From Dehalococcoidia bacterium (GTDB lineage Bacteria > Chloroflexota > Dehalococcoidia > SM23-28-2 > DASRHH01), in the NCBI GenBank assembly GCA_035650635.1, contig DASRHH010000074.1, positions 1-35,735 of the forward strand: a stretch of 35,735 bases of DNA. The letters run 5' to 3'. The position numbers and the translations under genes were made by a program. The stretch's first letter is position 1. Each line of letters begins with the position of its first letter. The notes beneath the pieces were generated by a model, which was not told the DNA's origin, ran no database searches, and was given only the letters and a program-made list of their open reading frames with translations. Of this stretch, positions 2,839 to 35,735 are shown one piece after another.

Positions 2839-4891
2839 GACACTCACTGAGCGACTTCGGCTTGCTACGAGCAGCGACGAACGGCCGAATGTCATACGCC
2901 GTGAATTTGCCGGAGGAGGGCCGGTAGATCACAGAGGCCTGGCCGCGCGACACCAGGCCGTCCAGCAAAGGCTGCTCGTTCAGGTGATAGCGCCCATAGG
3001 CTTTCTCGACGACGACGTAGTCAACGGACTTAAACGCCAGGAAGCACTGGTACTGAGACTCCACCCAGTTGCGGCGGAAGGTGCTTTCGCTGAAGAATTC
3101 GTTGCCAAGGATGGCCCCGTGGCGCACGAAGCGGTACATGCCATCCTCACGATCGTCCGGCTCCAGTACCCGATAGACAGCGCCAGGCTGGAACTGCGGC
3201 GAGGCAAAAAACGAAGCGTAGATGTTGCTGCTATTCATGATCGCGCCCGGGTAGCTGCCCTCCGCGAAGCCAAAGGGAATAGTGGCAAGTGATACGCCGG
3301 CTGCCAGCACCACCCCGAAAGTCAGCAGCGCCGGTCGATAGTACTTGAGGATCAGCGGCGCGAAGAGCGCGAAGACAAGCGGCGCCAGGATGACCGACTC
3401 CCGCCGTAACAGCGAATCGAAGATGGAGATGACGATGGTGATCACCGTGTTCTCATGGACGGACGGTGTAAGCAGTACCATCCAGGCGAACGGCAACAGC
3501 GCTACGCCCACCGGCAAACTCAGCATCACCAGAGGCCGCAACCGCTGCCGGTCCAGAAAGACCAGGTTGAGGCCGTAGAGGATCAGCGCCAGCCCGCCGA
3601 CGATCCAGTGCGAGCTGATGGCCAGCCAGAGCAGCGCCGCGGCCAGGAGCCGCCGGTCGCGCTCAAAGGCCCAGATGAAAAGGAAGAAGAAGGCGAAGCT
3701 CCACATCGTCGCGAACTGGAACGCATAAATCGCATCGATGAAGAAAGGGTTCATCAGGAAGAGCAGCATGAACCATGGGCTCTTCATCACCGGCCGTGCC
3801 AGGCCGGCGGCCCATACCGTCCCCACTGTCGCAATCGCCATCAAAAGTACGACTCCCCAGTCGCCGACGACCGGGAAGACGGTTGCGCCTAGGAGGTAGG
3901 GCACCAGCGCGTAAGGAAAGGCAATCGCCCGTCCGCTATCGAGGGATGTTATTCGCAGGGGTATCCGGGCGTGGTCGAAGATCTGCTCGCTAATGAACCA
4001 GATGTGGGTGTAGTTGTGCATCGAGTCGTAGGCAAGGAAGATCGGATGAATCAGCAGATCGACCGCGATAAAGGCCACTCCGCCGATAGCCAGCGCCGGC
4101 AGCAGATACAAGAGCCAGCCGCCGATATCGCGCGGGGCCTGCCTCAAGCAGAACACCCGCCAGAAGGCGGCCGGCATCGCAAGCAGATCGATCACGCCGT
4201 CCTTGACCCGCGTGCGCGAACGCTGCACAGGCACGGGGACAAGGACGTCGTTGCTTACTCGATAACCCAGATGAGGCAGCACGACAGCCAGCTCAACGGT
4301 CTCACTGTAGCGGTAGCCGCGGTAGTACTTGATCGCCTCGGCCAGGGCCCCGGCGCGAAAGACGCGGAAGCCAGACTCCACATCCCGGTAACGCATTCCG
4401 GCCCACAGCGTGGCCCAGGCGGACATCACGAAATTTCCGAATCGCTTGAATAATGAGTAGCCGCTGAGATCGCGCCGGGCGATCACGCCGTCCAATCGGT
4501 TGGTCAGCAAGTTATCGATGAGGCGACCGATATCTGTGGGGTCGTGCTGGCCATCGGCATCGACCGTCAGGATGAGATCGTCCGGGCTAAGCCGGCCGGC
4601 CGCTATGTCCTTCTGCAAGCGCTGGAACGCCATATAGTAAGCGGCCGACATGCCACGGTTTTTGGCAAAGCGGATGAGGCGGGTTTCCGGCCGCGAATCG
4701 ACCCACTCCGCTAACAGGTCGCCCGTGCCATCAGTGGAGCCGTCGTCGACAACGAAAATCCGGTCGACGGTCTGCTCCAGCTTCTCCAGGACACCAATGA
4801 TGGTGCCGGCTTCGTTGTAAGCCGGCATGACGGCGACGATGAGCGGGCTCTTTGTGGTGGGGGCGAGCGGCTCAGTGAGCGACTGGCTCAT
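2828..4891 (-). CDS. Family 2 glycosyltransferase (polyprenyl-phosphate sugar transferase-like, ArnC/DPM1-like) fused to a large polytopic membrane domain plus a C-terminal soluble domain
   Basis: N-terminus: PLIVAVMPAYNEAGTIIGVLEKL...IFVVDDGSTDGT...TVDADGQHD, the GT2 signature. This is followed by about 10-12 predicted TM segments and a soluble tail of about 130 aa. The start at MSQSLTEP (4891) forms an ATGA overlap with the epimerase stop. Confidence 0.8.
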   Translation of the reverse strand: MSQSLTEPLAPTTKSPLIVAVMPAYNEAGTIIGVLEKLEQTVDRIFVVDDGSTDGTGDLLAEWVDSRPETRLIRFAKNRGMSAAYYMAFQRLQKDIAAGRLSPDDLILTVDADGQHDPTDIGRLIDNLLTNRLDGVIARRDLSGYSLFKRFGNFVMSAWATLWAGMRYRDVESGFRVFRAGALAEAIKYYRGYRYSETVELAVVLPHLGYRVSNDVLVPVPVQRSRTRVKDGVIDLLAMPAAFWRVFCLRQAPRDIGGWLLYLLPALAIGGVAFIAVDLLIHPIFLAYDSMHNYTHIWFISEQIFDHARIPLRITSLDSGRAIAFPYALVPYLLGATVFPVVGDWGVVLLMAIATVGTVWAAGLARPVMKSPWFMLLFLMNPFFIDAIYAFQFATMWSFAFFFLFIWAFERDRRLLAAALLWLAISSHWIVGGLALILYGLNLVFLDRQRLRPLVMLSLPVGVALLPFAWMVLLTPSVHENTVITIVISIFDSLLRRESVILAPLVFALFAPLILKYYRPALLTFGVVLAAGVSLATIPFGFAEGSYPGAIMNSSNIYASFFASPQFQPGAVYRVLEPDDREDGMYRFVRHGAILGNEFFSESTFRRNWVESQYQCFLAFKSVDYVVVEKAYGRYHLNEQPLLDGLVSRGQASVIYRPSSGKFTAYDIRPFVAARSKPKSLSECHVY

Positions 4892-11261: not shown

Positions 11262-12623
11262 CTAAGATCCATTCGTAAAGATCGGATAGCCCGCAGCTCG
11301 CCAGGCTTCAATGCCGCCATCAAGGTTGAGCAAAGGACCCAGGCCTGCGCGTTCCAGCAACGAGGCAGCCGTCGAGGCACGTTCGCCATGGCCACAATAG
11401 GCGACCAGCGGCCGACCCTTGGGTAGGGTTGCCGCCACGTCTTGCAGGCGGCCCAGCGGTAGCTGGAGTGCGCCTTCAATATGGCCACTAGCGAATTCGT
11501 CCGACTCGCGTACGTCGAGGATCTCAGCCCCGTCAACGATGGCGCGGCGGGCGGCCTGGGCATCAACCAGTCTCACCTCAGCCACAGGCCGCCCGGACGC
11601 CTGCCAGGCAGTGATGCCGCCCTGCAGCCAGCCAACGAAGCGCTCGTAGCCGACAAGCAGCGATTCCGCGACGACATCTTCCAGCCTGACGCCGTCCGTT
11701 ACGAAAAGCAGCGGCAAGTCCGGCGGCACCAGCCATCCCAGCCAGGTGGCATAGACGTCGCGCAGGGGGTTGCTGATGGCGTTGGGCACGTGAGCCAGCG
11801 AGTACTCCTCCTTCGATCGCACGTCGATGACGATGGCGCCGGCAGCGAGCGCCTCCGCAAATTCGTCCGCGCTGAGCGGACGCGGACTGGGGATCTCCCC
11901 GCGCAAGCGCGGTCCGGCCTGGTTGAAGGCGCGAAGGCGGAAGAAGTAGTCCGGCGCGGCCGGAAATGTCCTCGGAAGCCAGCGGACGAACTCCTCCTGC
12001 TCGGTCTGCCGCAGCAACGGGTTGGATGCGCGCTCGCGGCCCAACGTCGAGATGCGCTCACCGCCGGCACCAGTGGAGCAGAAGGAGCCGCCGCCGTGGG
12101 TCGGATAGAGGATGGTGTTATCTGGCAGCGCGGCAAAGACCTGGTGCACCGTGTGAAAGAGGGAGCGGGTCAGCGATTCGGTCAGGTCCGGCGAAATTAG
12201 GTCGGTGCGGGCTGCGCCGCCGACAATGAGTGCGCCGCCACTGAACAGCTGCGGAGGCTGCCGGGCGCTGCGCAGGACATACGCCAGGTGCTCTGGCGTA
12301 TGTCCTGGCGAGGCAAGGGCCTCGATATCGGCGGAAGCAAGGCGCAGGCGCTGGCCAGCTTCAATGGCTTCGTGCGGGAACTTCGCCTGCTCGCCGGCCG
12401 GCAACAGGATGCGGGCGCCGGTGGCGTGAGCCAGCTCGCGGGCGCCGGAGACGAAATCTGCGTGCAGATGGGTCTCCAGCAACGCGACGATCCGCAGTCC
12501 CCGGGCCTCGGCCAACTGCAGGTAGCGCTGGATGCTACGGTCCGGGTCCACGACCAGCGCTTGCCCCTCGCCGAGATCCACCAGGTAGGAGCTGTTGCCC
12601 AACCCTTCATGAACAAACGGCAT
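11262..12623 (-). CDS. MBL-fold persulfide dioxygenase-like domain fused to two rhodanese domains (CstB/Blh-like)
   Basis: True start is MPFVHEGLGNSSYLVDLG (ATG at 12623), 5 nt after the MFS stop. The track ORF 11262..13055 carries a spurious Arg-rich extension that overlaps the MFS gene. Motifs: ETHLHADF and SPGHTPEH (MBL metal ligands); a second rhodanese with active-site loop YCGHGERAS. Confidence 0.85.
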   Translation of the reverse strand: MPFVHEGLGNSSYLVDLGEGQALVVDPDRSIQRYLQLAEARGLRIVALLETHLHADFVSGARELAHATGARILLPAGEQAKFPHEAIEAGQRLRLASADIEALASPGHTPEHLAYVLRSARQPPQLFSGGALIVGGAARTDLISPDLTESLTRSLFHTVHQVFAALPDNTILYPTHGGGSFCSTGAGGERISTLGRERASNPLLRQTEQEEFVRWLPRTFPAAPDYFFRLRAFNQAGPRLRGEIPSPRPLSADEFAEALAAGAIVIDVRSKEEYSLAHVPNAISNPLRDVYATWLGWLVPPDLPLLFVTDGVRLEDVVAESLLVGYERFVGWLQGGITAWQASGRPVAEVRLVDAQAARRAIVDGAEILDVRESDEFASGHIEGALQLPLGRLQDVAATLPKGRPLVAYCGHGERASTAASLLERAGLGPLLNLDGGIEAWRAAGYPIFTNGS

Positions 12624-12628
12624 CACCT

Positions 12629-13891
12629 TCACGGCGATACCTCCAGGGGCCGGCCGAATGTGGCTCTGCTCATCGTCATCGCTGCTACGACTCCGGAGCA
12701 GACTGTCGCGACGGCCACCAACTGGATGGCCGGCCGGAAACCGAAGACATCGGCGACAGCCCCGGCAGCCAGAGCGCCGGCTGCCGCTCCCGAGTCGCGC
12801 CAGAACCGATAGACACCGATGAAACTCGCACGGGCCTCCGGGTGAACCTCGTCGCCGATTGCTGCCAGCAGAGTCGGGTAGACGAGAGCGGTGCCTGCAC
12901 CCAATAAGGATACTGCCACCAGCCAACCCTCGAACTGCGAGGTCGCTCCGACGATGGCAATGGCCAAGCCCTGCAGCAGCATGCCAACGACGACGAGCGG
13001 TCGGCGGCCCAACTGGTCGCTGGCCCAGCCAGTCAGTGGCTGTAATGCGCCCCACAGCAAGGGGTAAAGCGAGGCCAGCAGCGCTATGCGCTCCAGTGAA
13101 AGACCGTGACTGGCGAAGTAGAGGGGAAAGATACCCCAGGCCAGGCCGTCGTTGAGGTTGTTGACGAAACCGGCCTGGCTGACACCGAACAGTCGAGGTT
13201 GGCGCGCTGTCTCGGCGAAACTGGCGCCGAGTGAGACAGCTGCCACCGATACCGGGTGGCGAGTCGCTTCCAGTCGCACATGGGAGGCGGTGTCGCGCAC
13301 CGCAAGCAGGCTCAGCGCCAGCCCGAGGCTGGCGAAAGCGATGCCGAGATAAAACGGCTCAGGCCTAAGCCCGTAGCCTTCGGCGATGATGCCGGTGAGG
13401 TAAGCAGCAGCGGCCACAGAGAGGTAACCCGCAGCCTCATTCACCCCGAGCGCAAAGCCACGGCTCCGCGGACCGACCAGATCGACCTTCATGTTCACAG
13501 TCATCGACCATGTTAGTCCCTGGTTGATCCCCAGCAGGAGATTGGCGCCGATGACCCAACTCCAGGCTGGCGCCAGTATGATGATGATTGGGACCGGCAG
13601 GCCGAAGAGCCAGCCGGTGACGAGAAGGCGTTTGCGGCCGTATCGCTCCGAAAGGCGGCCGGCGAAAAGGTTAGCCAGCGCCTTGGCCAGCCCGAACGAC
13701 GCGATGAAAGAGACAGCGGCCGTCTTGGAGGCGATGCCGAACTCGTCCCTGGCGAGGACCGGCATGATAGAGCGCTCCAGCCCGACCATGCCGCCGACGA
13801 AGGCATTGACCAGCGCCAGCAAAGCAAACTGCTGCCAGTTCGCTCGCAGGCCCAGGACCACACGTCGATCAGACTGGCGAGGCGGCACCAC
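12629..13891 (-). CDS. MFS transporter (possible sulfur oxyanion exporter, by context only)
   Basis: 420 aa, 12-TM pattern, MFS motif-A-like GRLSERYGRKR. Confidence 0.85.
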   Translation of the reverse strand: MVPPRQSDRRVVLGLRANWQQFALLALVNAFVGGMVGLERSIMPVLARDEFGIASKTAAVSFIASFGLAKALANLFAGRLSERYGRKRLLVTGWLFGLPVPIIIILAPAWSWVIGANLLLGINQGLTWSMTVNMKVDLVGPRSRGFALGVNEAAGYLSVAAAAYLTGIIAEGYGLRPEPFYLGIAFASLGLALSLLAVRDTASHVRLEATRHPVSVAAVSLGASFAETARQPRLFGVSQAGFVNNLNDGLAWGIFPLYFASHGLSLERIALLASLYPLLWGALQPLTGWASDQLGRRPLVVVGMLLQGLAIAIVGATSQFEGWLVAVSLLGAGTALVYPTLLAAIGDEVHPEARASFIGVYRFWRDSGAAAGALAAGAVADVFGFRPAIQLVAVATVCSGVVAAMTMSRATFGRPLEVSP

Positions 13892-15488: not shown

Positions 15489-16151
15489 ATGGACGATCAC
15501 CGCGGCTTCAAGGATCGGATATATGCCGAGTTCGCTCGCGTCGGCCAGGCTCTGGCGAACGAGAAGCGATTGGAGCTTATCGACCTGCTCGCCCAAGCGC
15601 CCAGGCACGTCGACGCTCTCGCTCAGGAGAGTGGAATGTCGGTGGCCAACGTCTCACAGCATCTGCAGGTGTTGCGAGATGTCCACCTCGTGACGCCTCA
15701 GAAGGAAGGCACACGAGTCGTCTATCGCCTTGCTGGCCTGGACGTGATCGGTCTATGGCTCTCGCTAAGATCGGTTGGGGAAGAACGTCTCGCGGAAGTC
15801 CGGCGCATCGTCGAAGACTCGGGGCCAGCCAGCAGCCTCAATGAGGAGCTGCCTCGTGCGGACCTCGATGGATTGCTTGCGTCCGGGCGGGCCATACTCC
15901 TGGATGTGCGGCCGCGCCTCGAGTTCGAATCCGGCCATCTGCCAGGCGCCGTTTCCATCCCGCTAAATGAACTGATGGATCGCTTGAGCGAGTTGCCTCG
16001 GGATAAGCTCGTCATCACCTATTGCCGGGGAGCCTACTGTCTGTTTGCAGACGAGGCCTTGGTCCTGCTGCGCCAACATGGCTACAACGCTCGCCGATTG
16101 GAGGGCGGCTGGCCTGAGTGGCTCAGCGAAGGTCGCGACGTCTCAACTTGA
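15489..16151 (+). CDS. ArsR/SmtB-family HTH regulator fused to a C-terminal rhodanese domain
   Basis: HTH region LELIDLLAQAPRHVDALAQESGMSVANVSQHLQVLRDVHLV. Rhodanese region LLDVRPRLEFESGHLPGAVSIP...ITYCRGAYC. The only cysteines in the protein are in the rhodanese loop. Confidence 0.85.
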   Translation: MDDHRGFKDRIYAEFARVGQALANEKRLELIDLLAQAPRHVDALAQESGMSVANVSQHLQVLRDVHLVTPQKEGTRVVYRLAGLDVIGLWLSLRSVGEERLAEVRRIVEDSGPASSLNEELPRADLDGLLASGRAILLDVRPRLEFESGHLPGAVSIPLNELMDRLSELPRDKLVITYCRGAYCLFADEALVLLRQHGYNARRLEGGWPEWLSEGRDVST

Positions 16152-27706: not shown

Positions 27707-30700
27707 CTACCCGAAGTTGTGCGCATGTGGAGCGACCGGCAGACTGCCGTTCAGCGCCCGGAAGTCCTCCGCTACGATGTTGATCGTGCCCTCTCGACGC
27801 TCCAACATCCCTCGCACGATGACGAACGGCTCGGTGCGGACCAACTGACGTTGCCGCTCATAGAGGCTGGCGCGCACCATCACGTTGGCCAGGCCAAACT
27901 CGTCCTCCATCACTAGAAAGACCATCCCCTTCGCCGTCATTGGCCGCTGACGACAGACTACCAGGCCCGCCAGTTCCAGGAATTTGCCGTCCTCCAGCGA
28001 ATGCAGCGCTGAGGTAGGTACGATGCCCTCGTGCAGGCGAGGTCGCAGGAAGGCCATAGGGTGCTGCAGGGACAACCCCAGGATGGAGTAATCGGCGGCC
28101 ATGCGGTCCCATTCGCTCATCGACGAGAGCGAGACCATGTCCTGCTCCGTGAGTAAGGGCAGCGCGAGCTGGCGTTGCCCGGCGTTGCGGCCTTCCGGTC
28201 GATAGACCAGCCCTAGCTGCCAGAGCAACTCTCGCCTCTCCAGTCCGAAGCCGTCGAAGGCTCCACAGCCGATCAGGTTCTCGATGGCTCCTCGCTTGAG
28301 GCGGGTGCGCTCCAGGAAGTCGAACAGCGAGCGAAAGGGGCCGCCCTCGTCGCGCCGCGTTTCGACCTCTTTCGCTGTACTCGGGCTCAAGCCTTTCACG
28401 TAGCGCAGGCCGATGCGCACCGCGCCATGCTCCATGGTGCAACTGGCATTGCTGCGGTTGATGTCCGGTGGCAATACCTCCACGCCGTGGCGCCGGCCGT
28501 CGTTCAGGAGGACGTGCGGGCCGTAGAACCCCATGGGCTGGGCGTTGAAGAGCGCGCAGAGGAACTCCGTGGGATAATACTGACGCAGCCAGGCGGTCTG
28601 GTAAGCGAGCAGCCCGAAGGCAGCGGCGTGGGCCTTAGGGAAGCCGAACTCCGCGAACCCGGATATCTTCTGGAAGGCACTCTCGGCGGCTTCCGGCGAG
28701 ACCCCGTTCTGCAGGCAGCCGTCCATGAACTCATCCTTCAGCCTGGAGATGGCTTCCTGGGAGCGCTTGCGACTCATGGCCCGGCGCAGGTTATCCGCCT
28801 GGCCGGTACTGAAGCCGGCCAGGGCCATCGCTACCTGCAGCACCTGGTCCTGGAAGAGGATGACGCCAAGTGTATCCTCCAGCACCGGCTCCAGGCTGGG
28901 GTGGTCGTAAGTAACTTCCTCCTTTCCCATGCGACGCCGGATGTAGGGGTTGACGGCACCACCGACGATGGGCCCCGGCCGGATGATCGCCACCTCCACC
29001 GTCAAGTCCTCCAGTGAGCGCGGCTTTACTCGCGGCAACGTCTGCATCTGAGCCCGCGACTCGATCTGGAAGACGCCCATCGTATCGGCATCGCAGATGG
29101 AGTCGTAGACCTGCTGGTCCTGGAAATCGATGCGGGAGAGGTCGACATGCCGGCCTTGGTGCCGCTCGATGAGGTCGAGGCAGTCGTCGACGGCGGAGAG
29201 CATGCCCAACGAGAGGAAGTCGATCTTGATCATGCGAGCGTCATCGACCGAGTCTTTGTCCCACTGGATGAGGTCGCGGCCCTCCATAGCGCTCTGCTCC
29301 AGCGGCACCAGCTCCACCAGCGGCTGTGTGCCGGAGATGACCATGCCGCCGACGTGCTGGCTGATGTGCCGGGGGAAGCCCGCAATCTGCTCCACCAGCT
29401 CCATCAGGTGCCGCCAGAGCGGAGCGTCCATCTTGTCCCGGTAGTGGGCCAGGCGCCTCATCTCCTCCCGCACGTGACGGGCGGAGGAATAGCCGTCGCT
29501 GACCTTGGCCAGGCGATCGAGTTCCGCCAGGGGCAGGCTCAGCGCCTTCCCCACCTCTCGCACAGCGCTGCGCAGCCGGTAGGTGGGGAAGGTAGCGACG
29601 AGCCCCACATTCTCCCGGCCAAAGTGCTCGTAGATGCGCAGGATCAGCTTCTCCCGGACGTCGCGCGGGAAATCGAGGTCGATGTCCGGCACCGATGCCA
29701 TCTCCTCATTGAGGAAGCGGCCCAGGAAGAGGTTGTTGGCCACGGGATCAATGTGCGATAGACCGATCAGGTAGCAGATGACGGACCCAACGGAAGAGCC
29801 GCGCCCCCGGCCCGGCGGCGCCAGGCATTCACGTCCACGCACTTCCCCTGCTACCTGATAGGCCAGGTTGAGGATCTCCCAGTGGATGAGGAAAAAGCCG
29901 GCCAATCCGTGATGAGCCACCAACCGCAGCTCTTCCTCCAGCCTCTCCTGCGCTTGCAGTGGCCGCTGGTAGCGGCGCTCTAGCTCCCGCCGGCAGAGCT
30001 TGCGCAGGTAAGAGTCCGCCGTCTCGCCGGGCGGCACCGGGTAGTCCGGGAAGCGATAGTCCAGGTCCTTCGTGAGGTCGAACCGGCAGCGCTCGGCGAT
30101 GCGCAGGCTGTTGGCGATGGCCTGCGGGTGATCTCGGAAGAGCTCCGCCATCTCAGCGGGCGGCCGCAGGAAGTACTCCGAGTTCTCGCGGCGTAGGTAG
30201 TGGCTGGCGTCCAGCGTGCTGCGGTTCTTGATGACGACCAGCACGTCCTGCAGGCGGTGCCGCTCTCGCGTATGGTAATGGACATTGCCCGTCGCTACGG
30301 TGCCAACACCCAAGCGCCGCGCCAGTTCCGCCAGTGCTTGATTGCGGCGGACGTCTCCATAGACCAGGTTGTTCTGCAGCTCCAGGAAGAAGCTGCCGGC
30401 GCCAAACCAGTCGCGGTAGCGGCGGGCGGCCGCCTCCGCTTCCGGGTAGCGCTCCTGTGCCAGCAGCGCTGGCACCTCCCCGCGCCGGCAGCCGGACAGT
30501 GCGATGAGCCCTTCCGTTTGGCGGGCCAGCACCTCCAGATCGATACAGGGGCTGCCGCGCTCGTGGTCCAGGTGGGCGTGAGTGAGCAGGCGGCAGAGGT
30601 TAGCGTAGCCGCGCTGAGTCTCGCAGAGCAGCGTCAGGTGGTGGCCGTTGGCCAGCGTGACCTCGGCGCCGGTGATCGGCTTGAGGTCCCAGGCACGGGC

Positions 30701-30865
30701 GGCCTGCGCGAACTCCATCGCCCCGTGCAGGCCGTCGTGGTCGGTCAGCGCCAGTGACTCGTATCCCTGAGCCTTCGCTCGCAACACCATCTCCTCGACG
30801 TGCGAGGCGCCCTCCAGGAAAGAAAAGCTGGAATGGGCGTGCAGCTCGGCGTAGGGAGCAGGCAT
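27707..30865 (-). CDS. dnaE2: Error-prone DNA polymerase III alpha-subunit paralog
   Basis: 1052 aa. N-terminal PHP domain YAELHAHSSFSFLEGAS...LALTDHDGLHG. The length and the adjacent imuB-like gene fit DnaE2 rather than replicative DnaE. Confidence 0.9.
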   Translation of the reverse strand: MPAPYAELHAHSSFSFLEGASHVEEMVLRAKAQGYESLALTDHDGLHGAMEFAQAARAWDLKPITGAEVTLANGHHLTLLCETQRGYANLCRLLTHAHLDHERGSPCIDLEVLARQTEGLIALSGCRRGEVPALLAQERYPEAEAAARRYRDWFGAGSFFLELQNNLVYGDVRRNQALAELARRLGVGTVATGNVHYHTRERHRLQDVLVVIKNRSTLDASHYLRRENSEYFLRPPAEMAELFRDHPQAIANSLRIAERCRFDLTKDLDYRFPDYPVPPGETADSYLRKLCRRELERRYQRPLQAQERLEEELRLVAHHGLAGFFLIHWEILNLAYQVAGEVRGRECLAPPGRGRGSSVGSVICYLIGLSHIDPVANNLFLGRFLNEEMASVPDIDLDFPRDVREKLILRIYEHFGRENVGLVATFPTYRLRSAVREVGKALSLPLAELDRLAKVSDGYSSARHVREEMRRLAHYRDKMDAPLWRHLMELVEQIAGFPRHISQHVGGMVISGTQPLVELVPLEQSAMEGRDLIQWDKDSVDDARMIKIDFLSLGMLSAVDDCLDLIERHQGRHVDLSRIDFQDQQVYDSICDADTMGVFQIESRAQMQTLPRVKPRSLEDLTVEVAIIRPGPIVGGAVNPYIRRRMGKEEVTYDHPSLEPVLEDTLGVILFQDQVLQVAMALAGFSTGQADNLRRAMSRKRSQEAISRLKDEFMDGCLQNGVSPEAAESAFQKISGFAEFGFPKAHAAAFGLLAYQTAWLRQYYPTEFLCALFNAQPMGFYGPHVLLNDGRRHGVEVLPPDINRSNASCTMEHGAVRIGLRYVKGLSPSTAKEVETRRDEGGPFRSLFDFLERTRLKRGAIENLIGCGAFDGFGLERRELLWQLGLVYRPEGRNAGQRQLALPLLTEQDMVSLSSMSEWDRMAADYSILGLSLQHPMAFLRPRLHEGIVPTSALHSLEDGKFLELAGLVVCRQRPMTAKGMVFLVMEDEFGLANVMVRASLYERQRQLVRTEPFVIVRGMLERREGTINIVAEDFRALNGSLPVAPHAHNFG

Positions 30866-31149
30866 CAGGGTCTACCCGATCGCGCCGGCGCCCAGTAATC
30901 CTGGGCTGCCCAGCCAACTGCGTCCCGATACACCGTCAGCGTCCGTCCGTCCTCCAGCAGCAGGCTGAAGTAGGTGCGGCTGACCGGCTGCGGGCGCCAC
31001 CACTCATCGTCGATGCGCCAGGTTTCCAGCACGGCCTGCACCTCGCGGCGGCCGGCGAGCCGGACGGCGATCGGCTTGCCCTCAGCGTCCTCTTCCACCT
31101 GCAGTGGGCGCGGGCGGTTCAAAGCGATTGTACGGTGCCGCCTAACCAT
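30865..31149 (-). CDS. 94-aa protein translationally coupled to dnaE2; resembles the C-terminal WW-motif region of ImuB-type proteins
   Basis: Its stop TGA overlaps the dnaE2 ATG (TGATG). Contains AVLETWRIDDEWWRPQPVSRTYFSLLLEDGRTLTVYRD. Confidence 0.55.
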   Translation of the reverse strand: MVRRHRTIALNRPRPLQVEEDAEGKPIAVRLAGRREVQAVLETWRIDDEWWRPQPVSRTYFSLLLEDGRTLTVYRDAVGWAAQDYWAPARSGRP

Positions 31150-31189
31150 ATATGATTCTCAACAAAAGGAGTTTCAAAGGAGCGCTGGA

Positions 31190-31480
31190 ATGGCAATCGT
31201 CATGTTTATGGAGTGGGATGTCACACCGGATCAATACGAGGCGGCTAGGAAGCTGGTTAACTGGGAGGGCCAAGTGCCTGCGGGTGCGATATTCCATGTC
31301 GCTGCTTTCAATCAGCGGGGACTGCGGGTTACCGATCTCTGGGAATCGGAAGAGGACATGCAGGCGTTCGTCAACACACGATTGATGCCGGGGGTCCGCC
31401 AGTTGGGCATCCAGTCCAATCCGCATGTAGAGGTTTTGCCTACACATGCTATCTTTACGCCTGCTTTCAAGCCTGCCTGA
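31190..31480 (+). CDS. Small ABM / dimeric alpha-beta-barrel-like protein (tentative)
   Basis: Start MAIVMFMEWDV with an AAGGAG SD 9 nt upstream. The track ORF 30974..31480 has an implausible N-terminal extension antisense to the 94-aa gene. Confidence 0.5.
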   Translation: MAIVMFMEWDVTPDQYEAARKLVNWEGQVPAGAIFHVAAFNQRGLRVTDLWESEEDMQAFVNTRLMPGVRQLGIQSNPHVEVLPTHAIFTPAFKPA

Positions 31481-32650
31481 TTAAGGCTCGAACTCGACCA
31501 GGGCCGCTCTGCGCTCGGGAATCCGCGACCACGGCTCCACCTCCACAATCTTCCCCAGGGGCACGTAGCCCTGCTTGGCGTGCAGTTGTCGCACAGTCTC
31601 GTCTATCTGTCGCCACAGCTTGCCCTTGCTCTCGAACATGCCGGCCTGCCTGCCAGACTCGGCGCTCAGACCTACCAGTTCTACCTCCAGCTCCTCCACC
31701 GGCCGCTGCGGCGGATGCCGGACGATGGCGCTCTTTACTGCGAACCAGGCATGGGCGGGGTCGGAGAGCGCCTCCCGGAAGGAGACCGGCAGCTCCCAGG
31801 AGCCACCGCCGTCCAGGAGGCCGCGCGCCACTACCTTGCGCACCCAGCGGCCACGCCTGTCCGGGCTCCCGTAAGCGCTGTAGAGCAGGCGCTCCAGGCC
31901 GGCGAGTATGGGGTCGATGGACACTGCCGCGGCCGGCAGTTGCAGCCGGCGCACGATGCTCTCCTCCTGCAGCCTTGGCAGCAGCGGCTCGCTATCGATG
32001 CCCTGCGCCAGCTCCCAGCAGCGCTTGCCCTCGGTCCCGAACTGCTGCTGGTAGGCGCCCAGTGGCAGCGTCGCTATCTCTCCCAGGGTGCGCAATCCCA
32101 GCAGCTCCAGCCGCCAGCGAACCGGTTCATCGATGGGGAGGAGATCTACAGGCAACGGCGCCAGGAAGCCGGCGTCTTGCCCCGCCTGCACCAGCTTCGC
32201 CAGGCCGGGGCGAGAGGTCTGCGCCGCGACGCGGGCGGTGAACTTGCCTTTCGCGATGCCTGCCGTCGCCATCAGCCCGAAGCGCTTGTGCAGTCCGGAG
32301 ATCAGGCGATCCGCCAGCTCCTGCGGCTCAGCCGCCAGGCCCTTCAGCGAGAGATAGGCCAGCCCGAGGCCCGCCGGTTCCAGCTCCGGGCTGAACCCTT
32401 CCAGGAAGTTCATCACCTCTTCGAAGCGGCACTGGTAATAGGACAGGTCCGGTGGCAGCACCTCCGCGCGATGACAGAGGCCAATCGCTTCCGACATGCG
32501 CATGCCGCGCCTGACGCCGGAGGCCTCAGCGCCGAGAGAGCAATCGAAGACTGTTGCTTCGCCGATTAAAATAAGAGATGTGGCTGAACTCTGCCGGCGT
32601 TGGCGCTCGACTTCGACAGAGAAACGGGGGATAGCGATGCAAGTAAGCAT
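31481..32650 (-). CDS. imuB: Y-family polymerase homolog lacking the catalytic acidic residues (ImuB-like)
   Basis: The N-terminus CIAIPRFSVEVE replaces the canonical D-x-D-x-F-(F/Y)-ASVE motif of DinB-type enzymes. 389 aa. Lies upstream of dnaE2. Confidence 0.75.
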   Translation of the reverse strand: MLTCIAIPRFSVEVERQRRQSSATSLILIGEATVFDCSLGAEASGVRRGMRMSEAIGLCHRAEVLPPDLSYYQCRFEEVMNFLEGFSPELEPAGLGLAYLSLKGLAAEPQELADRLISGLHKRFGLMATAGIAKGKFTARVAAQTSRPGLAKLVQAGQDAGFLAPLPVDLLPIDEPVRWRLELLGLRTLGEIATLPLGAYQQQFGTEGKRCWELAQGIDSEPLLPRLQEESIVRRLQLPAAAVSIDPILAGLERLLYSAYGSPDRRGRWVRKVVARGLLDGGGSWELPVSFREALSDPAHAWFAVKSAIVRHPPQRPVEELEVELVGLSAESGRQAGMFESKGKLWRQIDETVRQLHAKQGYVPLGKIVEVEPWSRIPERRAALVEFEP

Positions 32651-32666
32651 AGCTGGCCCTTACAAC

Positions 32667-32694
32667 TTTATAGAACACTCGTTCTACTTGTCAA
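32667..32694 (-). promoter_or_regulatory. Near-consensus promoter for the imuB-like gene: TTGACA, 16 nt, TATAAA
   Basis: The minus strand reads TTGACA AGTAGAACGAGTGTTC TATAAA. The ATG is 16 nt after the -10, giving a very short leader. Confidence 0.5.
32672..32685. promoter_or_regulatory. LexA (Cheo-type SOS) box AGAAC-ACTC-GTTCT
   Basis: Perfect palindrome matching the GAAC-N4-GTTC consensus. It sits inside the imuB promoter spacer/-10 and 26 nt upstream of the udgX-like ATG. Confidence 0.6.
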
Positions 32695-32710
32695 TCCTCC
32701 GGTGGCTGTG

Positions 32711-33358
32711 ATGAGGGCTCTCACGTTGGAGGAGATGATGGCGGGTGAAGCTGCCGAGTTGCTGCCGCCCAAGCCATCGCTGAAGAGCTTGCGCGAAGCC
32801 GCGGCAGACTGCAAAGCCTGCCCCCTTTGGGAGCTAGGTACTCAAACGGTCTTCGGCGAAGGCGAGCGCACCGCCAGACTGGTGCTCATCGGCGAGCAGC
32901 CCGGCGATGCAGAAGATGTGGCCGGCAAGCCTTTCGTTGGCCCTGCGGGAAGATTGCTGGACGAAGCTCTAGAACGGGCCGGCCTCGACCGGCACTTCGC
33001 CTACGTCACTAACGTTGTCAAGCATTTCAAGTGGGAGCCGCGCGGTAAGCGACGCATTCATAAGAAGCCCAACGAGAGGGAGATCACCGCTTGCCGCCCC
33101 TGGCTGGCTGCTGAGCTCAGCGTCCTGGAGCCGGAAGTCATCGTCTGCCTGGGCGCTACCGCTTCGCAGGCGCTGCTGGGCCGCGACTTCAGGGTGAGTC
33201 TTCAACGGGGTATCGTCATGCCGTCGGACCTGGCGCGGCACATCATGGCCACGGTGCACCCATCCTCTATCCTCCGCGCCGATGACCGCGAGCACGAGAT
33301 GCAAGCCTTCGTGGCCGATCTGGAAAAGGTCAGCCCGTTGCTGGCAGCCTATCAATAA
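32711..33358 (+). CDS. udgX: Family 4 uracil-DNA glycosylase of the UdgX type
   Basis: GEQPG motif A, HPSS motif B, Fe-S cysteines (CKACPLW, ITACRPW) and the UdgX-specific insertion KHFKWEPRGKRRIHKKP containing KRRIH. Start at MRALTLEE; the track start at 32600 is unlikely. Confidence 0.85.
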   Translation: MRALTLEEMMAGEAAELLPPKPSLKSLREAAADCKACPLWELGTQTVFGEGERTARLVLIGEQPGDAEDVAGKPFVGPAGRLLDEALERAGLDRHFAYVTNVVKHFKWEPRGKRRIHKKPNEREITACRPWLAAELSVLEPEVIVCLGATASQALLGRDFRVSLQRGIVMPSDLARHIMATVHPSSILRADDREHEMQAFVADLEKVSPLLAAYQ

Positions 33359-33651: not shown

Positions 33652-33891
33652 CTACTCAGACATCTCCGACTTGATCTTGGCCCAGTACGTCAACCAAGCT
33701 TGATGCTCGCGCTCCTTGGCCTCCTCGATTCGCAGCATCTGCGTTCGACTAAGCAGGACAGAGCCGACGGGCAGCGGTGGCGCATAACCCAGAGAGATCA
33801 ACAAAAGGTCATGGTCGTGACGCGCGTGTTGCCATCTCTCGTAAAGTCCAGCCGTACTCTCGTCGCCCGACCTACTGGCCATTGAGGACAT
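33652..33891 (-). CDS. Hypothetical 79-aa protein
   Basis: Track ORF, last gene of the minus-strand cluster. No motif recognised. Confidence 0.35.
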   Translation of the reverse strand: MSSMASRSGDESTAGLYERWQHARHDHDLLLISLGYAPPLPVGSVLLSRTQMLRIEEAKEREHQAWLTYWAKIKSEMSE

Positions 33892-33901
33892 TGCCGGTCA
33901 C

Positions 33902-34405
33902 TCAGGCGAGTGATTGGGCAACCTTGATCAGGTCGTCAACCGAGAGCCCCTGCCCAGCGAGCCGGACCGATAGTCGATCATCAAGCTCCCAGCCCAAAAA
34001 GACCCTCCCCTTTTGCCATTTGGCCGTCGGATTATCTTTGGGGTGAGTCTCAGCTAACGGCTGGTCGACCGTGAGGAACCCGTCAACCCAAGTGGCCTTC
34101 CACCCATTGATGTCCACTGGCCCGAAGCTGTCGGTTGGAGCGCCGCGGGTATCGAGTGGGGCAGTATGGCCTTGGGACACCGCCAAATGCCGGCCCGCCC
34201 CCGAGTAAATCATGTCAACGAAGGCTCCGACGCCACCATCGGAGGCCACGAACCAAGGCGGGGCTATGCGGGACACCTGACGAAGGGTCAGGCCGTCCGG
34301 AACAAAGCCCGGGACCAGTAGCCGAAAATCGACCGACGATTGTGCTTCTTCGCGAGTCGAGAAGACCTCTCGATTCGCCTTGAACGCCAACGGGCTAGTA
34401 GACAC
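33902..34405 (-). CDS. DUF4367-like domain protein (paralog of the anti-sigma extracytoplasmic domain)
   Basis: FRLLVPGFVPDGLTLRQVS ... LSVDDLIKVAQSLA parallels FTLRLPAYLPEDLQLKTAG ... LPVDQAIRVAESI in 34843..35667. No obvious signal peptide. Confidence 0.55.
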   Translation of the reverse strand: MSTSPLAFKANREVFSTREEAQSSVDFRLLVPGFVPDGLTLRQVSRIAPPWFVASDGGVGAFVDMIYSGAGRHLAVSQGHTAPLDTRGAPTDSFGPVDINGWKATWVDGFLTVDQPLAETHPKDNPTAKWQKGRVFLGWELDDRLSVRLAGQGLSVDDLIKVAQSLA

Positions 34406-34436: not shown

Positions 34437-34817
34437 TTAGCAGCCGACTCCGAGGTAGGTTCCACAGGGATAGCAGGTCCCGCCTAGGCAAGAGCCGGCT
34501 ATATACCAATAGTCCAACCAGCAATCAAACCCGTCGCAACACCAACGAGAATAAACGTACCAGCATTGCCTGCCCTGCCAACCGGCGTTGCATGCCCCAC
34601 AAGTACACCACCTCTCGGAGGTGTTATAGACCCAGCCGCCGCACGTAAAACCGAGGGCAGAGTCTGTACCGCCCAGCAGGTGAAGCGCCACAGTGGCCGC
34701 GCTTAGGGCTGCCGAGCCAGCCAAAAAGTGGCGCCGACTCAGCTGCTGGCGAGCCACTGGCGCGCTTGGTATGACCTCAATCTGTTCCCGCAATGGTTTC
34801 TTGGTAAGCGAAATCAA
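34437..34817 (-). CDS. Tat-signal secreted mini-protein with a 12-Cys, Trp/Tyr/Gly-rich mature domain of about 73 aa
   Basis: Twin-arginine signal LSRRHFLAGSAALSAATVAL. Mature part: GFTCGGWVYNTSERWCTCGACNAGWQGRQCWYVYSRWCCDGFDCWLDYWYIAGSCLGGTCYPCGTYLGVGC. I place the start at TTG 34817, 7 nt after an AAGGAG SD. The track start at 34859 overlaps the upstream gene. Confidence 0.6.
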   Translation of the reverse strand: MISLTKKPLREQIEVIPSAPVARQQLSRRHFLAGSAALSAATVALHLLGGTDSALGFTCGGWVYNTSERWCTCGACNAGWQGRQCWYVYSRWCCDGFDCWLDYWYIAGSCLGGTCYPCGTYLGVGC

Positions 34818-34842
34818 AGTCAGACTCCTTGTCTCGATCCTC

Positions 34843-35667
34843 TTAGATGCTCTCGGCAACTCTTATGGCTTGATCCACTGGGAGCGAACTGGACAGCTCG
34901 AAAAACACGCTTTGATCTACCCACTGAAGGACGATGAAGTCTTGCGCGCCGCCCAGTCTCGAAAGGATCGCTGGATTCCCAGCGATCGAAATGGGCTCGC
35001 CGGGCACGTCGAATGCCGCATTCTGGTCCAGTACCTGAAATTCGCGAAGTGACAGGACGACGCTGTCTGGACTTTCCTTATTTACGTAGTCGAACTGCGC
35101 ACCACTCAGTCTGCGACTCGCCGGAAGGGGCCCTGCGGTTTTAAGTTGAAGGTCTTCCGGGAGGTACGCGGGCAATCTCAACGTGAAACCCACCTGTTGT
35201 TCAAGTTGTTTGATGTTGAGCGGAAGGTCAGTGGTCGTTAGCGTCCCTTCCGGAGCTTGCTGCGAAGACGACGTAATTCCGACGAAATGGGCCACGTCTC
35301 TAGCGGTTGCCCTGCCACTACTTGTCAGGACCGCGAGGCAAACCAGGATGACCGCCACTGCGAACATGCCGACGGCCATGTTCCTCGCTCTGAGTAACGG
35401 CGGCAGGCCGCCCCTGTCACTCGAGCGATGGGTCCTCCTCATCCGGAATCTCGAGCGAAGTCCGAGGCCGGGGCGTCCCGGGTTAGAGGCCGCATAGGAG
35501 CGGAGGTGGACCTCTAGCTCGTCCTTAAATGCCTCCGACGGCAGTGCCTTGTTGGCATGCAATTCATCGGCCGCTCTCAGAATCTCCTCGGAGCCGGCGG
35601 CCGACATTTGGCCAGATCGGAGTTGATCAAGCAAGCGGTCGAAGTCGGAATCGTAACTATGGCTCAT
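34843..35667 (-). CDS. Anti-sigma-factor-like single-pass membrane protein with an extracytoplasmic DUF4367-like domain
   Basis: ATGA overlap with the sigma-factor stop. Cytoplasmic N-terminal region of about 95 aa, TM MAVGMFAVAVILVCLAVL, then a DUF4367-like C-terminus. No zf-HC2 motif was seen. Confidence 0.55.
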   Translation of the reverse strand: MSHSYDSDFDRLLDQLRSGQMSAAGSEEILRAADELHANKALPSEAFKDELEVHLRSYAASNPGRPGLGLRSRFRMRRTHRSSDRGGLPPLLRARNMAVGMFAVAVILVCLAVLTSSGRATARDVAHFVGITSSSQQAPEGTLTTTDLPLNIKQLEQQVGFTLRLPAYLPEDLQLKTAGPLPASRRLSGAQFDYVNKESPDSVVLSLREFQVLDQNAAFDVPGEPISIAGNPAILSRLGGAQDFIVLQWVDQSVFFELSSSLPVDQAIRVAESI

Positions 35668-35735
35668 TGGAGAACGCTTCCCATTTTTCTTAGCGACCGC
35701 GCCAGTATCGTTCCGACATTCGACTCCGAGACTTT
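35664..35735 (-). CDS. C-terminal end (region 4.2) of an ECF-type sigma-70 factor; the rest is off the right edge
   Basis: Manual translation gives KVSESNVGTILARSLRKMGSVLQ-stop, the typical sigma region-4 HTH tail. Its stop overlaps the next gene's ATG. Confidence 0.6.
   Translation of the reverse strand, partial: KVSESNVGTILARSLRKMGSVLQ

Follow-up and report, generated by a model that had tools for sequence, protein, structure and literature searches.

A twin-arginine-signal, twelve-cysteine mini-protein encoded with MauE, an ECF sigma factor and an anti-sigma-like protein in a Dehalococcoidia bacterium

Introduction

MauE is a DsbB-like, disulfide-forming membrane protein that stands in for DsbB in E. 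coli and has a much wider distribution than the mau clusters; the loop joining helices 3 and 4 carries its essential CXC motif, which usually reads CGC followed by F-G (bioRxiv 10.64898/2026.03.05.709764). The light chain of methylamine dehydrogenase (MADH), MauA, contains six disulfides and depends on both MauE and MauD (bioRxiv 10.64898/2026.03.05.709764). The proposal that MauE ranks second in frequency among bacterial routes to disulfide bonds is very recent, and natural substrates of MauE are known only for MADH. Here we describe an operon that offers a candidate dedicated MauE substrate: a small, Cys-rich protein whose gene lies near one end of a 35,735-nucleotide stretch from a Dehalococcoidia bacterium (GenBank assembly GCA_035650635.1, contig DASRHH010000074.1, positions 1 to 35,735 of the forward strand), referred to as the window.

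Several other described systems share elements with this locus. MauA reportedly carries a twin-arginine leader, an observation that goes back to Berks in 1996. Partners that lack a signal of their own are found outside the cell in the hitch-hikers of the twin-arginine translocation (Tat) pathway, such as the hydrogenase small/large subunits and SoxY/SoxZ. In RseA/RseB and MucA/MucB, a sigma factor of the extracytoplasmic function (ECF) type is under the control of a single-pass anti-sigma factor with a LolA-like outside portion or partner, and MibX/MibW and PspX/PspW are ECF pairs embedded in peptide clusters. DUF4367 (PF14285), a domain relevant to the present operon, is one that we take to be LolA-like. 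It accompanies LolA-like proteins (bioRxiv 10.1101/2025.01.13.632879).

The locus analyzed here brings such elements together in an arrangement that appears to be undescribed in the literature searched. The gene for the Cys-rich protein is flanked by those for an anti-sigma-like membrane protein with a DUF4367-like domain and for a soluble copy of that domain, and genes for an ECF sigma factor and a MauE protein belong to the same operon. An exported Cys-rich protein together with a signal-less copy of a sensor domain would constitute an undescribed accessory pair for ECF sigma signalling.

Results

The Cys-rich gene and its product

The precursor of the Cys-rich protein is encoded on the minus strand at 34437..34817 (126 residues, TTG start, TAA stop) and is present in the list of open reading frames (ORFs) of the window; the first-pass annotation, made from the sequence letters alone, had placed it at exactly these coordinates. 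Reading of the sequence revealed a Shine-Dalgarno motif, AAGGAG (34825..34830, minus strand), with a spacer of 7 nt to the TTG at 34817. A longer TTG-initiated form of the ORF extends to 34859 and would specify 140 residues; the relative P0002 was called from the same start position as the TTG at 34817. A database protein, P0001, is identical to the window protein. Codons were compared with those of the locus of the closest relative (L001), and the mature domain showed 30 codon differences, 28 of them synonymous and 2 non-synonymous. This ratio marks the ORF as a genuine gene on which strong purifying selection acts. The GenBank record of this metagenome-assembled genome contains no gene call for it: the locus tags of the flanking genes, VFB90_03515 and VFB90_03520, run consecutively, and the ORF is therefore unannotated. 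The gene shows that standard annotation misses such genes. A search of the window against Rfam did not yield an RNA family match.

Residues 1–56 of the precursor (34650..34817, minus strand) have the features of a twin-arginine signal peptide, namely an n-region of 26 residues, the motif SRRHFL (34722-34739), an Ala-rich h-region (residues 31-50), which is the sole hydrophobic segment of the precursor, and A-L-G. The Pfam profile TAT_signal (PF10518) matched with 23.9 bits (cut-off 22.7), and TIGR01409 scored 15.0 bits, just under its cut-off of 16.7. The motif [ST]RRx[FVLM]L is kept in all nine family members (see below) and its RR pair is invariant. The score above the Pfam cut-off and the conserved RR agree with the clear twin-arginine signal noted in the first-pass annotation. 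Cleavage is predicted after A-L-G in the window protein, a position placed by means of the sites AQA and AVA in relatives; ALA is also found among these. Overall, we infer that the precursor goes to the Tat translocase and that its cleavage follows A-x-A/G. The possibility of a lipoprotein was rejected: counted from the A-x-A site, the first Cys stands at +3, and in no case is it preceded by a lipobox. In two relatives, P0005 and P0006 (L007 160-582), the n-region ahead of the RR motif contains the tetrapeptide DCGC, which is the same tetrapeptide as that in the active-site loop (DCGCFG) of the MauE protein of the window's cluster.

The mature domain (34440..34649, minus strand) comprises 70 residues, including 12 Cys, 7 Trp, 7 Tyr and 12 Gly, and contains neither His nor Met. 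The numbers of Cys, Trp and Tyr had been given correctly in the first-pass annotation; the mature length had been put somewhat too high, at about 73 residues. The Cys residues are arranged as C-x11-C-x-C-x2-C-x8-C-x7-CC-x4-C-x10-C-x4-C-x2-C-x7-C. This framework is identical, with all 12 Cys invariant, in six close members of the family, so that the expected conservation of the pattern is indeed found.

Relatives of the protein were sought with three methods: (i) a word index of 5.8 billion clusters; (ii) an exhaustive phmmer search of 1.84 billion representatives; and (iii) a profile search. The protein search space was about 15 billion proteins overall. Nine distinct family proteins were obtained in total (P0001, which is the window protein, P0002, P0003, P0004, P0017, P0018, P0005, P0006 and the C-terminal half of P0008). 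A further protein from the exhaustive search, P0007 (E 7e-4), was not counted as a member, having neither the RR signal nor the conserved Cys pattern. The broad family alignment was too diverse to yield search patterns. Two pattern scans, with patterns taken from two subfamilies, detected no relatives in 185,579 species genomes; tblastn detected none in 72,556 plasmids, and a scan of JGI metagenomes returned only the window's own contig.

The same absence of known relatives was seen in comparisons with characterized families. With the full precursor, Pfam and NCBIfam matched only the Tat signal; with seven mature domains no Pfam match was obtained at E<=10, and a profile search of the PDB at E<=10 gave only chance matches, via the signal peptide. 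AlphaFold2 (AF2) modelling of the full-length protein from three sequences reached a predicted local distance difference test (pLDDT) score of 45, and that of the mature domain from seven sequences gave an all beta-hairpin model of low confidence (pLDDT 63). The latter model found no match in the PDB with Foldseek (best E 0.42, TM below 0.4). The first-pass annotation had recognised no known family, and the profile searches, the PDB sequences and the Foldseek comparison all bear this out. As far as these searches reach, the family is new and very rare, and the mini-protein is without detectable homology to the MauA, ferredoxin, HiPIP, rubredoxin or knottin families.

The operon encodes a MauE protein

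The last 4551 nt of the window are identical to the JGI contig L003, which runs 2.3 kb past the window end. Two contigs, L002 and L003, reach further upstream, and on both the gene order is p223, MauE, ECF sigma, anti-sigma, Cys-rich protein, p167 and p79. The genes overlap or are 3–31 nt apart, which fits with a single transcript. A sigma-70-type promoter was looked for in L003 1-4700 and none was found; the alignment of the upstream regions of L002 and L003, being one of two sequences only, was too weak for the definition of an ECF promoter.

The MauE gene on L003 lies two genes upstream of the anti-sigma gene, and its product matches PF07291 with 74.5 bits (cut-off 27); the arrangement on L002 is the same. 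The CGC motif of this MauE protein, with its F-G, is part of a loop that follows the third hydrophobic segment (DCGCFG on L003; ECGCYG on L002), and the proteins of both contigs keep the Lys in the first transmembrane segment (TM1) and the Glu in TM2 that have been noted as conserved. A third version of the motif, PCGCLG, is found in the most distant relative of the Cys-rich protein, P0008, which is a single ORF of 288 residues (L005 2138-3004). In it, a MauE domain precedes the motif SRRTFL; behind this come a hydrophobic segment, A-L-A and a version of the mature domain with 16 Cys, and the junction contains no stop or start codon. A p167-like gene is present downstream of P0008, and a gene with an ECF sigma domain is transcribed divergently from it. 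The predicted fusion of MauE to the Cys-rich domain and the conserved co-operonic position of the two are the strongest functional clue available. The divergent gene itself (L005 430-2106, minus strand) is an ORF of 558 residues in which a GT4 glycosyltransferase is followed by a C-terminal ECF sigma factor (r2, r4), and it may have an unusual architecture or may stem from the merging of gene calls.

Sigma factor, anti-sigma-like protein and p167

The ECF sigma factor gene runs off the end of the window, and only 23 codons at its 3' end plus the stop (35664..35735, minus strand) lie inside. The sigma protein of L003 matched window positions 35667-35735 for 100% in tblastn. The full protein (L003 1802-2398, 198 residues) scored 56.5 bits with Sigma70_r2, 37.2 bits with r4_2 and 91.4 bits with TIGR02937, and it has regions 2 and 4 only, as ECF sigma factors do. 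The location of the Cys-rich gene downstream of an ECF sigma gene, part of the earlier annotation, follows from the 3' end in the window and the full gene on L003, and is seen likewise on L002.

The ATG of the anti-sigma gene (34843..35667, minus strand) overlaps the sigma stop codon (ATGA). Its product of 274 residues would consist of a cytoplasmic N-terminus, one TM segment (residues 94-121; 35305-35388, minus strand) and an extracytoplasmic DUF4367-like domain (residues 151-274; 34846-35217, minus strand). In GenBank this gene was called as a partial protein of 296 residues. The C-terminus matches DUF4367 with 21.1 bits, below the cut-off of 22.1 (E 4.5e-4); orthologues are present in L001 and L002, and that of L002 matches with an E of 0.019.

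Directly downstream of the Cys-rich gene lies the gene for p167 (33902..34405, minus strand; 167 residues), a paralogue of the DUF4367-like domain of the anti-sigma protein. The two were related by hhalign with a probability of 93.4% (E 2.5e-7); p167 itself does not match DUF4367, and one of its orthologues does so at E 0.0018. Orthologues of p167 are present in L001, L002 and L005-L009, and in none of them is there a signal peptide or TM segment, or an ORF that can be extended upstream; the same holds for p167. Profile searches of the PDB with the p167 and anti-sigma families gave no match, and the only protein recovered with p167 from the word index was p167 itself. A DUF4367-type C-terminus is encoded upstream of the Cys-rich gene at seven loci (window/L003, L001, L002, L006, L007, L008 and L009), and a p167 homologue is encoded downstream at these loci and at L005. 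The place of the gene between an anti-sigma-like protein and a second copy of its DUF4367-like domain, as read in the first-pass annotation, is therefore well supported by the hhalign comparison and by the seven loci.

The last gene of the operon specifies p79 (33652..33891, minus strand), a conserved 79-residue protein that had no match in Pfam; its counterpart in L002 is a protein of 92 residues. In L002 an extra gene for a protein of 182 residues (3652-4200) is inserted ahead of this counterpart (4167-4445). The first gene, p223 (L003 573-1244; L002 105-782), encodes 223 or 225 residues; the L002 protein shows a weak DUF5666-like match (24.6 bits versus 27), and the product of this gene has a weakly hydrophobic N-terminus. 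When the products of L003 and L002 were compared, the Cys-rich protein was the most conserved of the operon, with 66% identity overall and 76% in the mature domain; identities were 61% for p79, 58% for the sigma factor, 47% for p167, 46% for the anti-sigma protein, 42% for p223 and 34% for MauE.

Discussion

Proposed function of the Cys-rich protein

The reading that we favor, at somewhat less than even confidence, is that the Cys-rich protein is an exported, disulfide-stabilised mini-protein that is matured by the MauE of its own operon and serves as a partner of the DUF4367-like domain of the anti-sigma protein in sigma signalling. The precursor would be exported by the Tat translocase and cleaved after A-x-A/G. 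MauE, acting as a DsbB-like oxidase that is linked to quinone and has CGC at its active site, would make six disulfides from the 12 Cys, and the resulting aromatic-rich knot would bind the LolA-like DUF4367 domain of the anti-sigma factor; either this binding or the oxidation state of the knot may tune the release of the sigma factor and the expression of the operon. In the cytoplasm, the signal-less p167 would bind the hydrophobic, unoxidised precursor and act as its chaperone or else be co-exported with it by Tat. The first-pass annotation had offered, as one option, a knotted protein sensed by paired DUF4367 domains. The knotted protein as the sensed species is a viable part of that proposal, but the two domains are not simply an extracellular pair, since p167 is without a signal peptide or TM segment in any orthologue.

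A number of observations weigh against this interpretation. The N-terminal 90 residues of the anti-sigma-like protein do not match an anti-sigma family in Pfam or NCBIfam, the operon does not encode a thioredoxin-fold (DsbA- or MauD-like) partner for MauE, and the AF2 model of the mature domain (pLDDT 63) is of low confidence. The agreement among the eight loci partly reflects shared ancestry, since they are small in number and some of them are close relatives of one another; most lie on contigs of 1-2 kb. In P0008, two hydrophobic segments lie between the CXC loop and the RR linker, and both of these elements are therefore predicted on the same membrane face, which conflicts with a periplasmic CXC motif and a cytoplasmic RR. 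The fifth segment may fail to cross the membrane, the fusion may be an assembly artefact, or oxidation may take place at the cytoplasmic face. Finally, the Cys counts in the family (12, 8 and 16) are all multiples of four, the mature domain contains two CxxC knuckles (CGAC and CYPCG), and Tat usually carries folded or cofactor-loaded proteins.

The operon could make testable why some disulfide-dense proteins use Tat, and also whether MauE can oxidise a substrate directly, that is, without a thioredoxin-like relay.

Alternative explanations

The mini-protein could instead be the output of the operon, a secreted antimicrobial (defensin-like) or signalling peptide that is switched on by the ECF sigma/anti-sigma pair, with p167 as an immunity protein or chaperone; the pair possibly senses the peptide itself, as in lantibiotic clusters with such pairs. 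The protein is small, Cys-rich and predicted to be exported, its gene is the most conserved of the operon, and the family is very rare, with a patchy distribution of the kind often seen for accessory or competition genes. ECF sigma/anti-sigma pairs are known to control the production of microbisporicin and planosporicin. MauE homologues also adjoin small Cys-rich precursors in candidate clusters for peptides that are ribosomally synthesized and modified post-translationally (RiPPs) of Streptomyces, as far as these clusters are described (PMC7794033). However, no modifying enzyme, dedicated transporter or immunity gene was recognised in the operon by Pfam or NCBIfam, and the mature domain is nearly invariant (96% identity, versus 72% for the anti-sigma protein), whereas bacteriocins normally diversify. 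That the gene is strictly flanked by those for two homologous domains of the binding type points to a stable complex. Altogether, we consider an output peptide unlikely, though it deserves to be weighed first among the alternatives.

A metal- or cluster-containing redox protein is also to be weighed. Here, the Cys array would bind Fe, Zn or an Fe-S cluster in the cytoplasm (e.g. in three Cys4 sites) and Tat would export the holo-protein; the first-pass annotation had argued along these lines from the Tat signal. In addition to that signal, to Cys counts that are multiples of four and to the two knuckles, which are of the rubredoxin or zinc-ribbon type, the aromatic-rich surroundings of the Cys residues resemble the cores of HiPIP or rubredoxin, and p167 could serve maturation in the cytoplasm as a TorD- or DmsD-type chaperone. 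Against this, no ferredoxin, HiPIP, rubredoxin or metallothionein profile matched at E<=10 and the PDB gave no match; the canonical ferredoxin motif (e.g. CxxCxxCxxxCP) is absent, with only CxCxxC and CxPC being present, and cluster-assembly or cofactor genes were not found in the conserved operon with Pfam and NCBIfam. The number of Cys is always even: seven members have 12, P0005 has 8 and P0008 has 16. Relative to its sister P0006, P0005 is without exactly four Cys (75/76, 94, 99 and 118), and in both proteins C85 is replaced by a new Cys at 67, C110 has moved to 111 and C76 to 75. Such shifting and relocation of Cys between subfamilies would be unusual for a fixed ligand geometry. On account of the even counts, the shifting positions, the absence of His and Met, and a disulfide-forming MauE in the same operon or even the same ORF, the evidence leans to six disulfides over a metal cluster, and the earlier argument from Tat export is not favored; we regard a metal or cluster protein as rather improbable. 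A protein with a quinone or cross-linked cofactor, similar to those with tryptophan tryptophylquinone (TTQ) or cysteine tryptophylquinone (CTQ), was also considered; as genes for MauG, a radical-SAM protein or a flavoprotein are absent from the operon, it was rejected as the leading explanation.

More speculatively still, the mini-protein may be a built-in test substrate that reports on extracytoplasmic oxidative folding. In that case p167 would chaperone it in the cytoplasm or leave with it by Tat, the operon's MauE would oxidise it to a six-disulfide knot, and the LolA-like domain of the anti-sigma protein would read whether the knot is correct, making the ECF sigma factor a sensor of extracytoplasmic thiol-disulfide stress; this is a long shot. 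A bolder variant still starts from the same-face prediction for the CXC loop and the RR linker of P0008: MauE might oxidise its substrate on the cytoplasmic face of the membrane, and Tat would then export the already knotted protein.

Lastly, that the ORF is spurious, its Cys, Trp and Gly richness being a by-product of composition or of an opposite-strand gene, is hardly credible: the missing GenBank call, the TTG start and the overlapping plus-strand ORFs of 102 and 119 residues could be taken that way, but the 28:2 ratio in the Cys-rich frame effectively refutes it, and the strong Shine-Dalgarno motif at the correct spacing, the nine homologues with conserved Cys and RR, called as genes by three independent pipelines, and the conserved operon position all argue against it.

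Other features of the window

Elsewhere in the window, positions 27707-32650 hold a cassette that looks to be of the mutasome type. On the minus strand it has a Y-family, ImuB-like polymerase (31481-32650), an ORF of 94 residues without a Pfam match (30865-31149) and a DnaE2-type Pol III alpha (27707-30865); a gene of the uracil-DNA glycosylase family (32600-33358, plus strand) adjoins it. Two further genes, near to each other, contain rhodanese domains: one encodes a metallo-beta-lactamase fold fused to two such domains (11262-13055, minus strand), and the other an ArsR-type helix-turn-helix fused to one (15489-16151, plus strand). Judged from their domains, these look like a pair for the handling and sensing of sulfur or persulfide.

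Comparison with known systems

Like MauA, the mini-protein is small, predicted to be exported and provided with 12 Cys, a MauE-family protein is encoded in the same operon, and Trp, which is functionally prominent in MauA, is abundant in it. With 70 residues compared to about 130, it is about half the size. No similarity to MauA (PF02975) was found with Pfam at E<=10, no MADH chain appeared in the PDB profile search at E<=10, and none was among the best 50 matches of the AF2 model (pLDDT 63) in the Foldseek search of the PDB. The operons of L002 and L003 have no mauB, mauG or mauD, and so no TTQ pathway or thioredoxin-like partner, and the mini-protein belongs to a sigma/anti-sigma module whereas MauA belongs to a catabolic cluster. 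The resemblance to MauA would thus be one of logic and not of membership.

With RseA/RseB, MucA/MucB, MibX/MibW and PspX/PspW the operon shares an ECF sigma factor paired with a single-pass, anti-sigma-like protein that has a presumed LolA-like fold on the one hand and a co-encoded, probably exported peptide on the other. Unlike in those pairs, the anti-sigma protein itself contains the LolA-like domain as a fusion, a soluble, signal-less protein forms a second copy of it, and the candidate ligand is a 12-Cys protein with a Tat signal that has no lanthipeptide enzymes or proteases encoded nearby. The mini-protein and p167 also recall the Tat hitch-hikers, in that a partner with an RR signal is encoded beside one without a signal; here the signal bearer is a Cys-rich peptide of 70 residues without a recognised cofactor, and co-export of p167 is conjecture. 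Homologues of mauE and mauD are found outside mau clusters, beside small, Cys-containing precursors, in the Streptomyces RiPP families of decRiPPter, as these are described (PMC7794033). Those families are from a different phylum, and the description, on which the likeness is based, mentions no ECF or DUF4367 context as far as it goes (PMC7794033).

Finally, the MauE protein of the cluster has in common with MauE in general (Gonzalez et al. 2026 preprint) the PF07291 domain, the CGC-F-G loop and the Lys and Glu residues. The MauE proteins that have been tested have four TM segments and act via DsbA, whereas that of the cluster has a fifth hydrophobic segment and no thioredoxin partner. The MauE fusions known so far are to thioredoxin-fold domains; in the operon described here it is a candidate dedicated substrate that adjoins MauE, and one relative has the two joined in a fusion.

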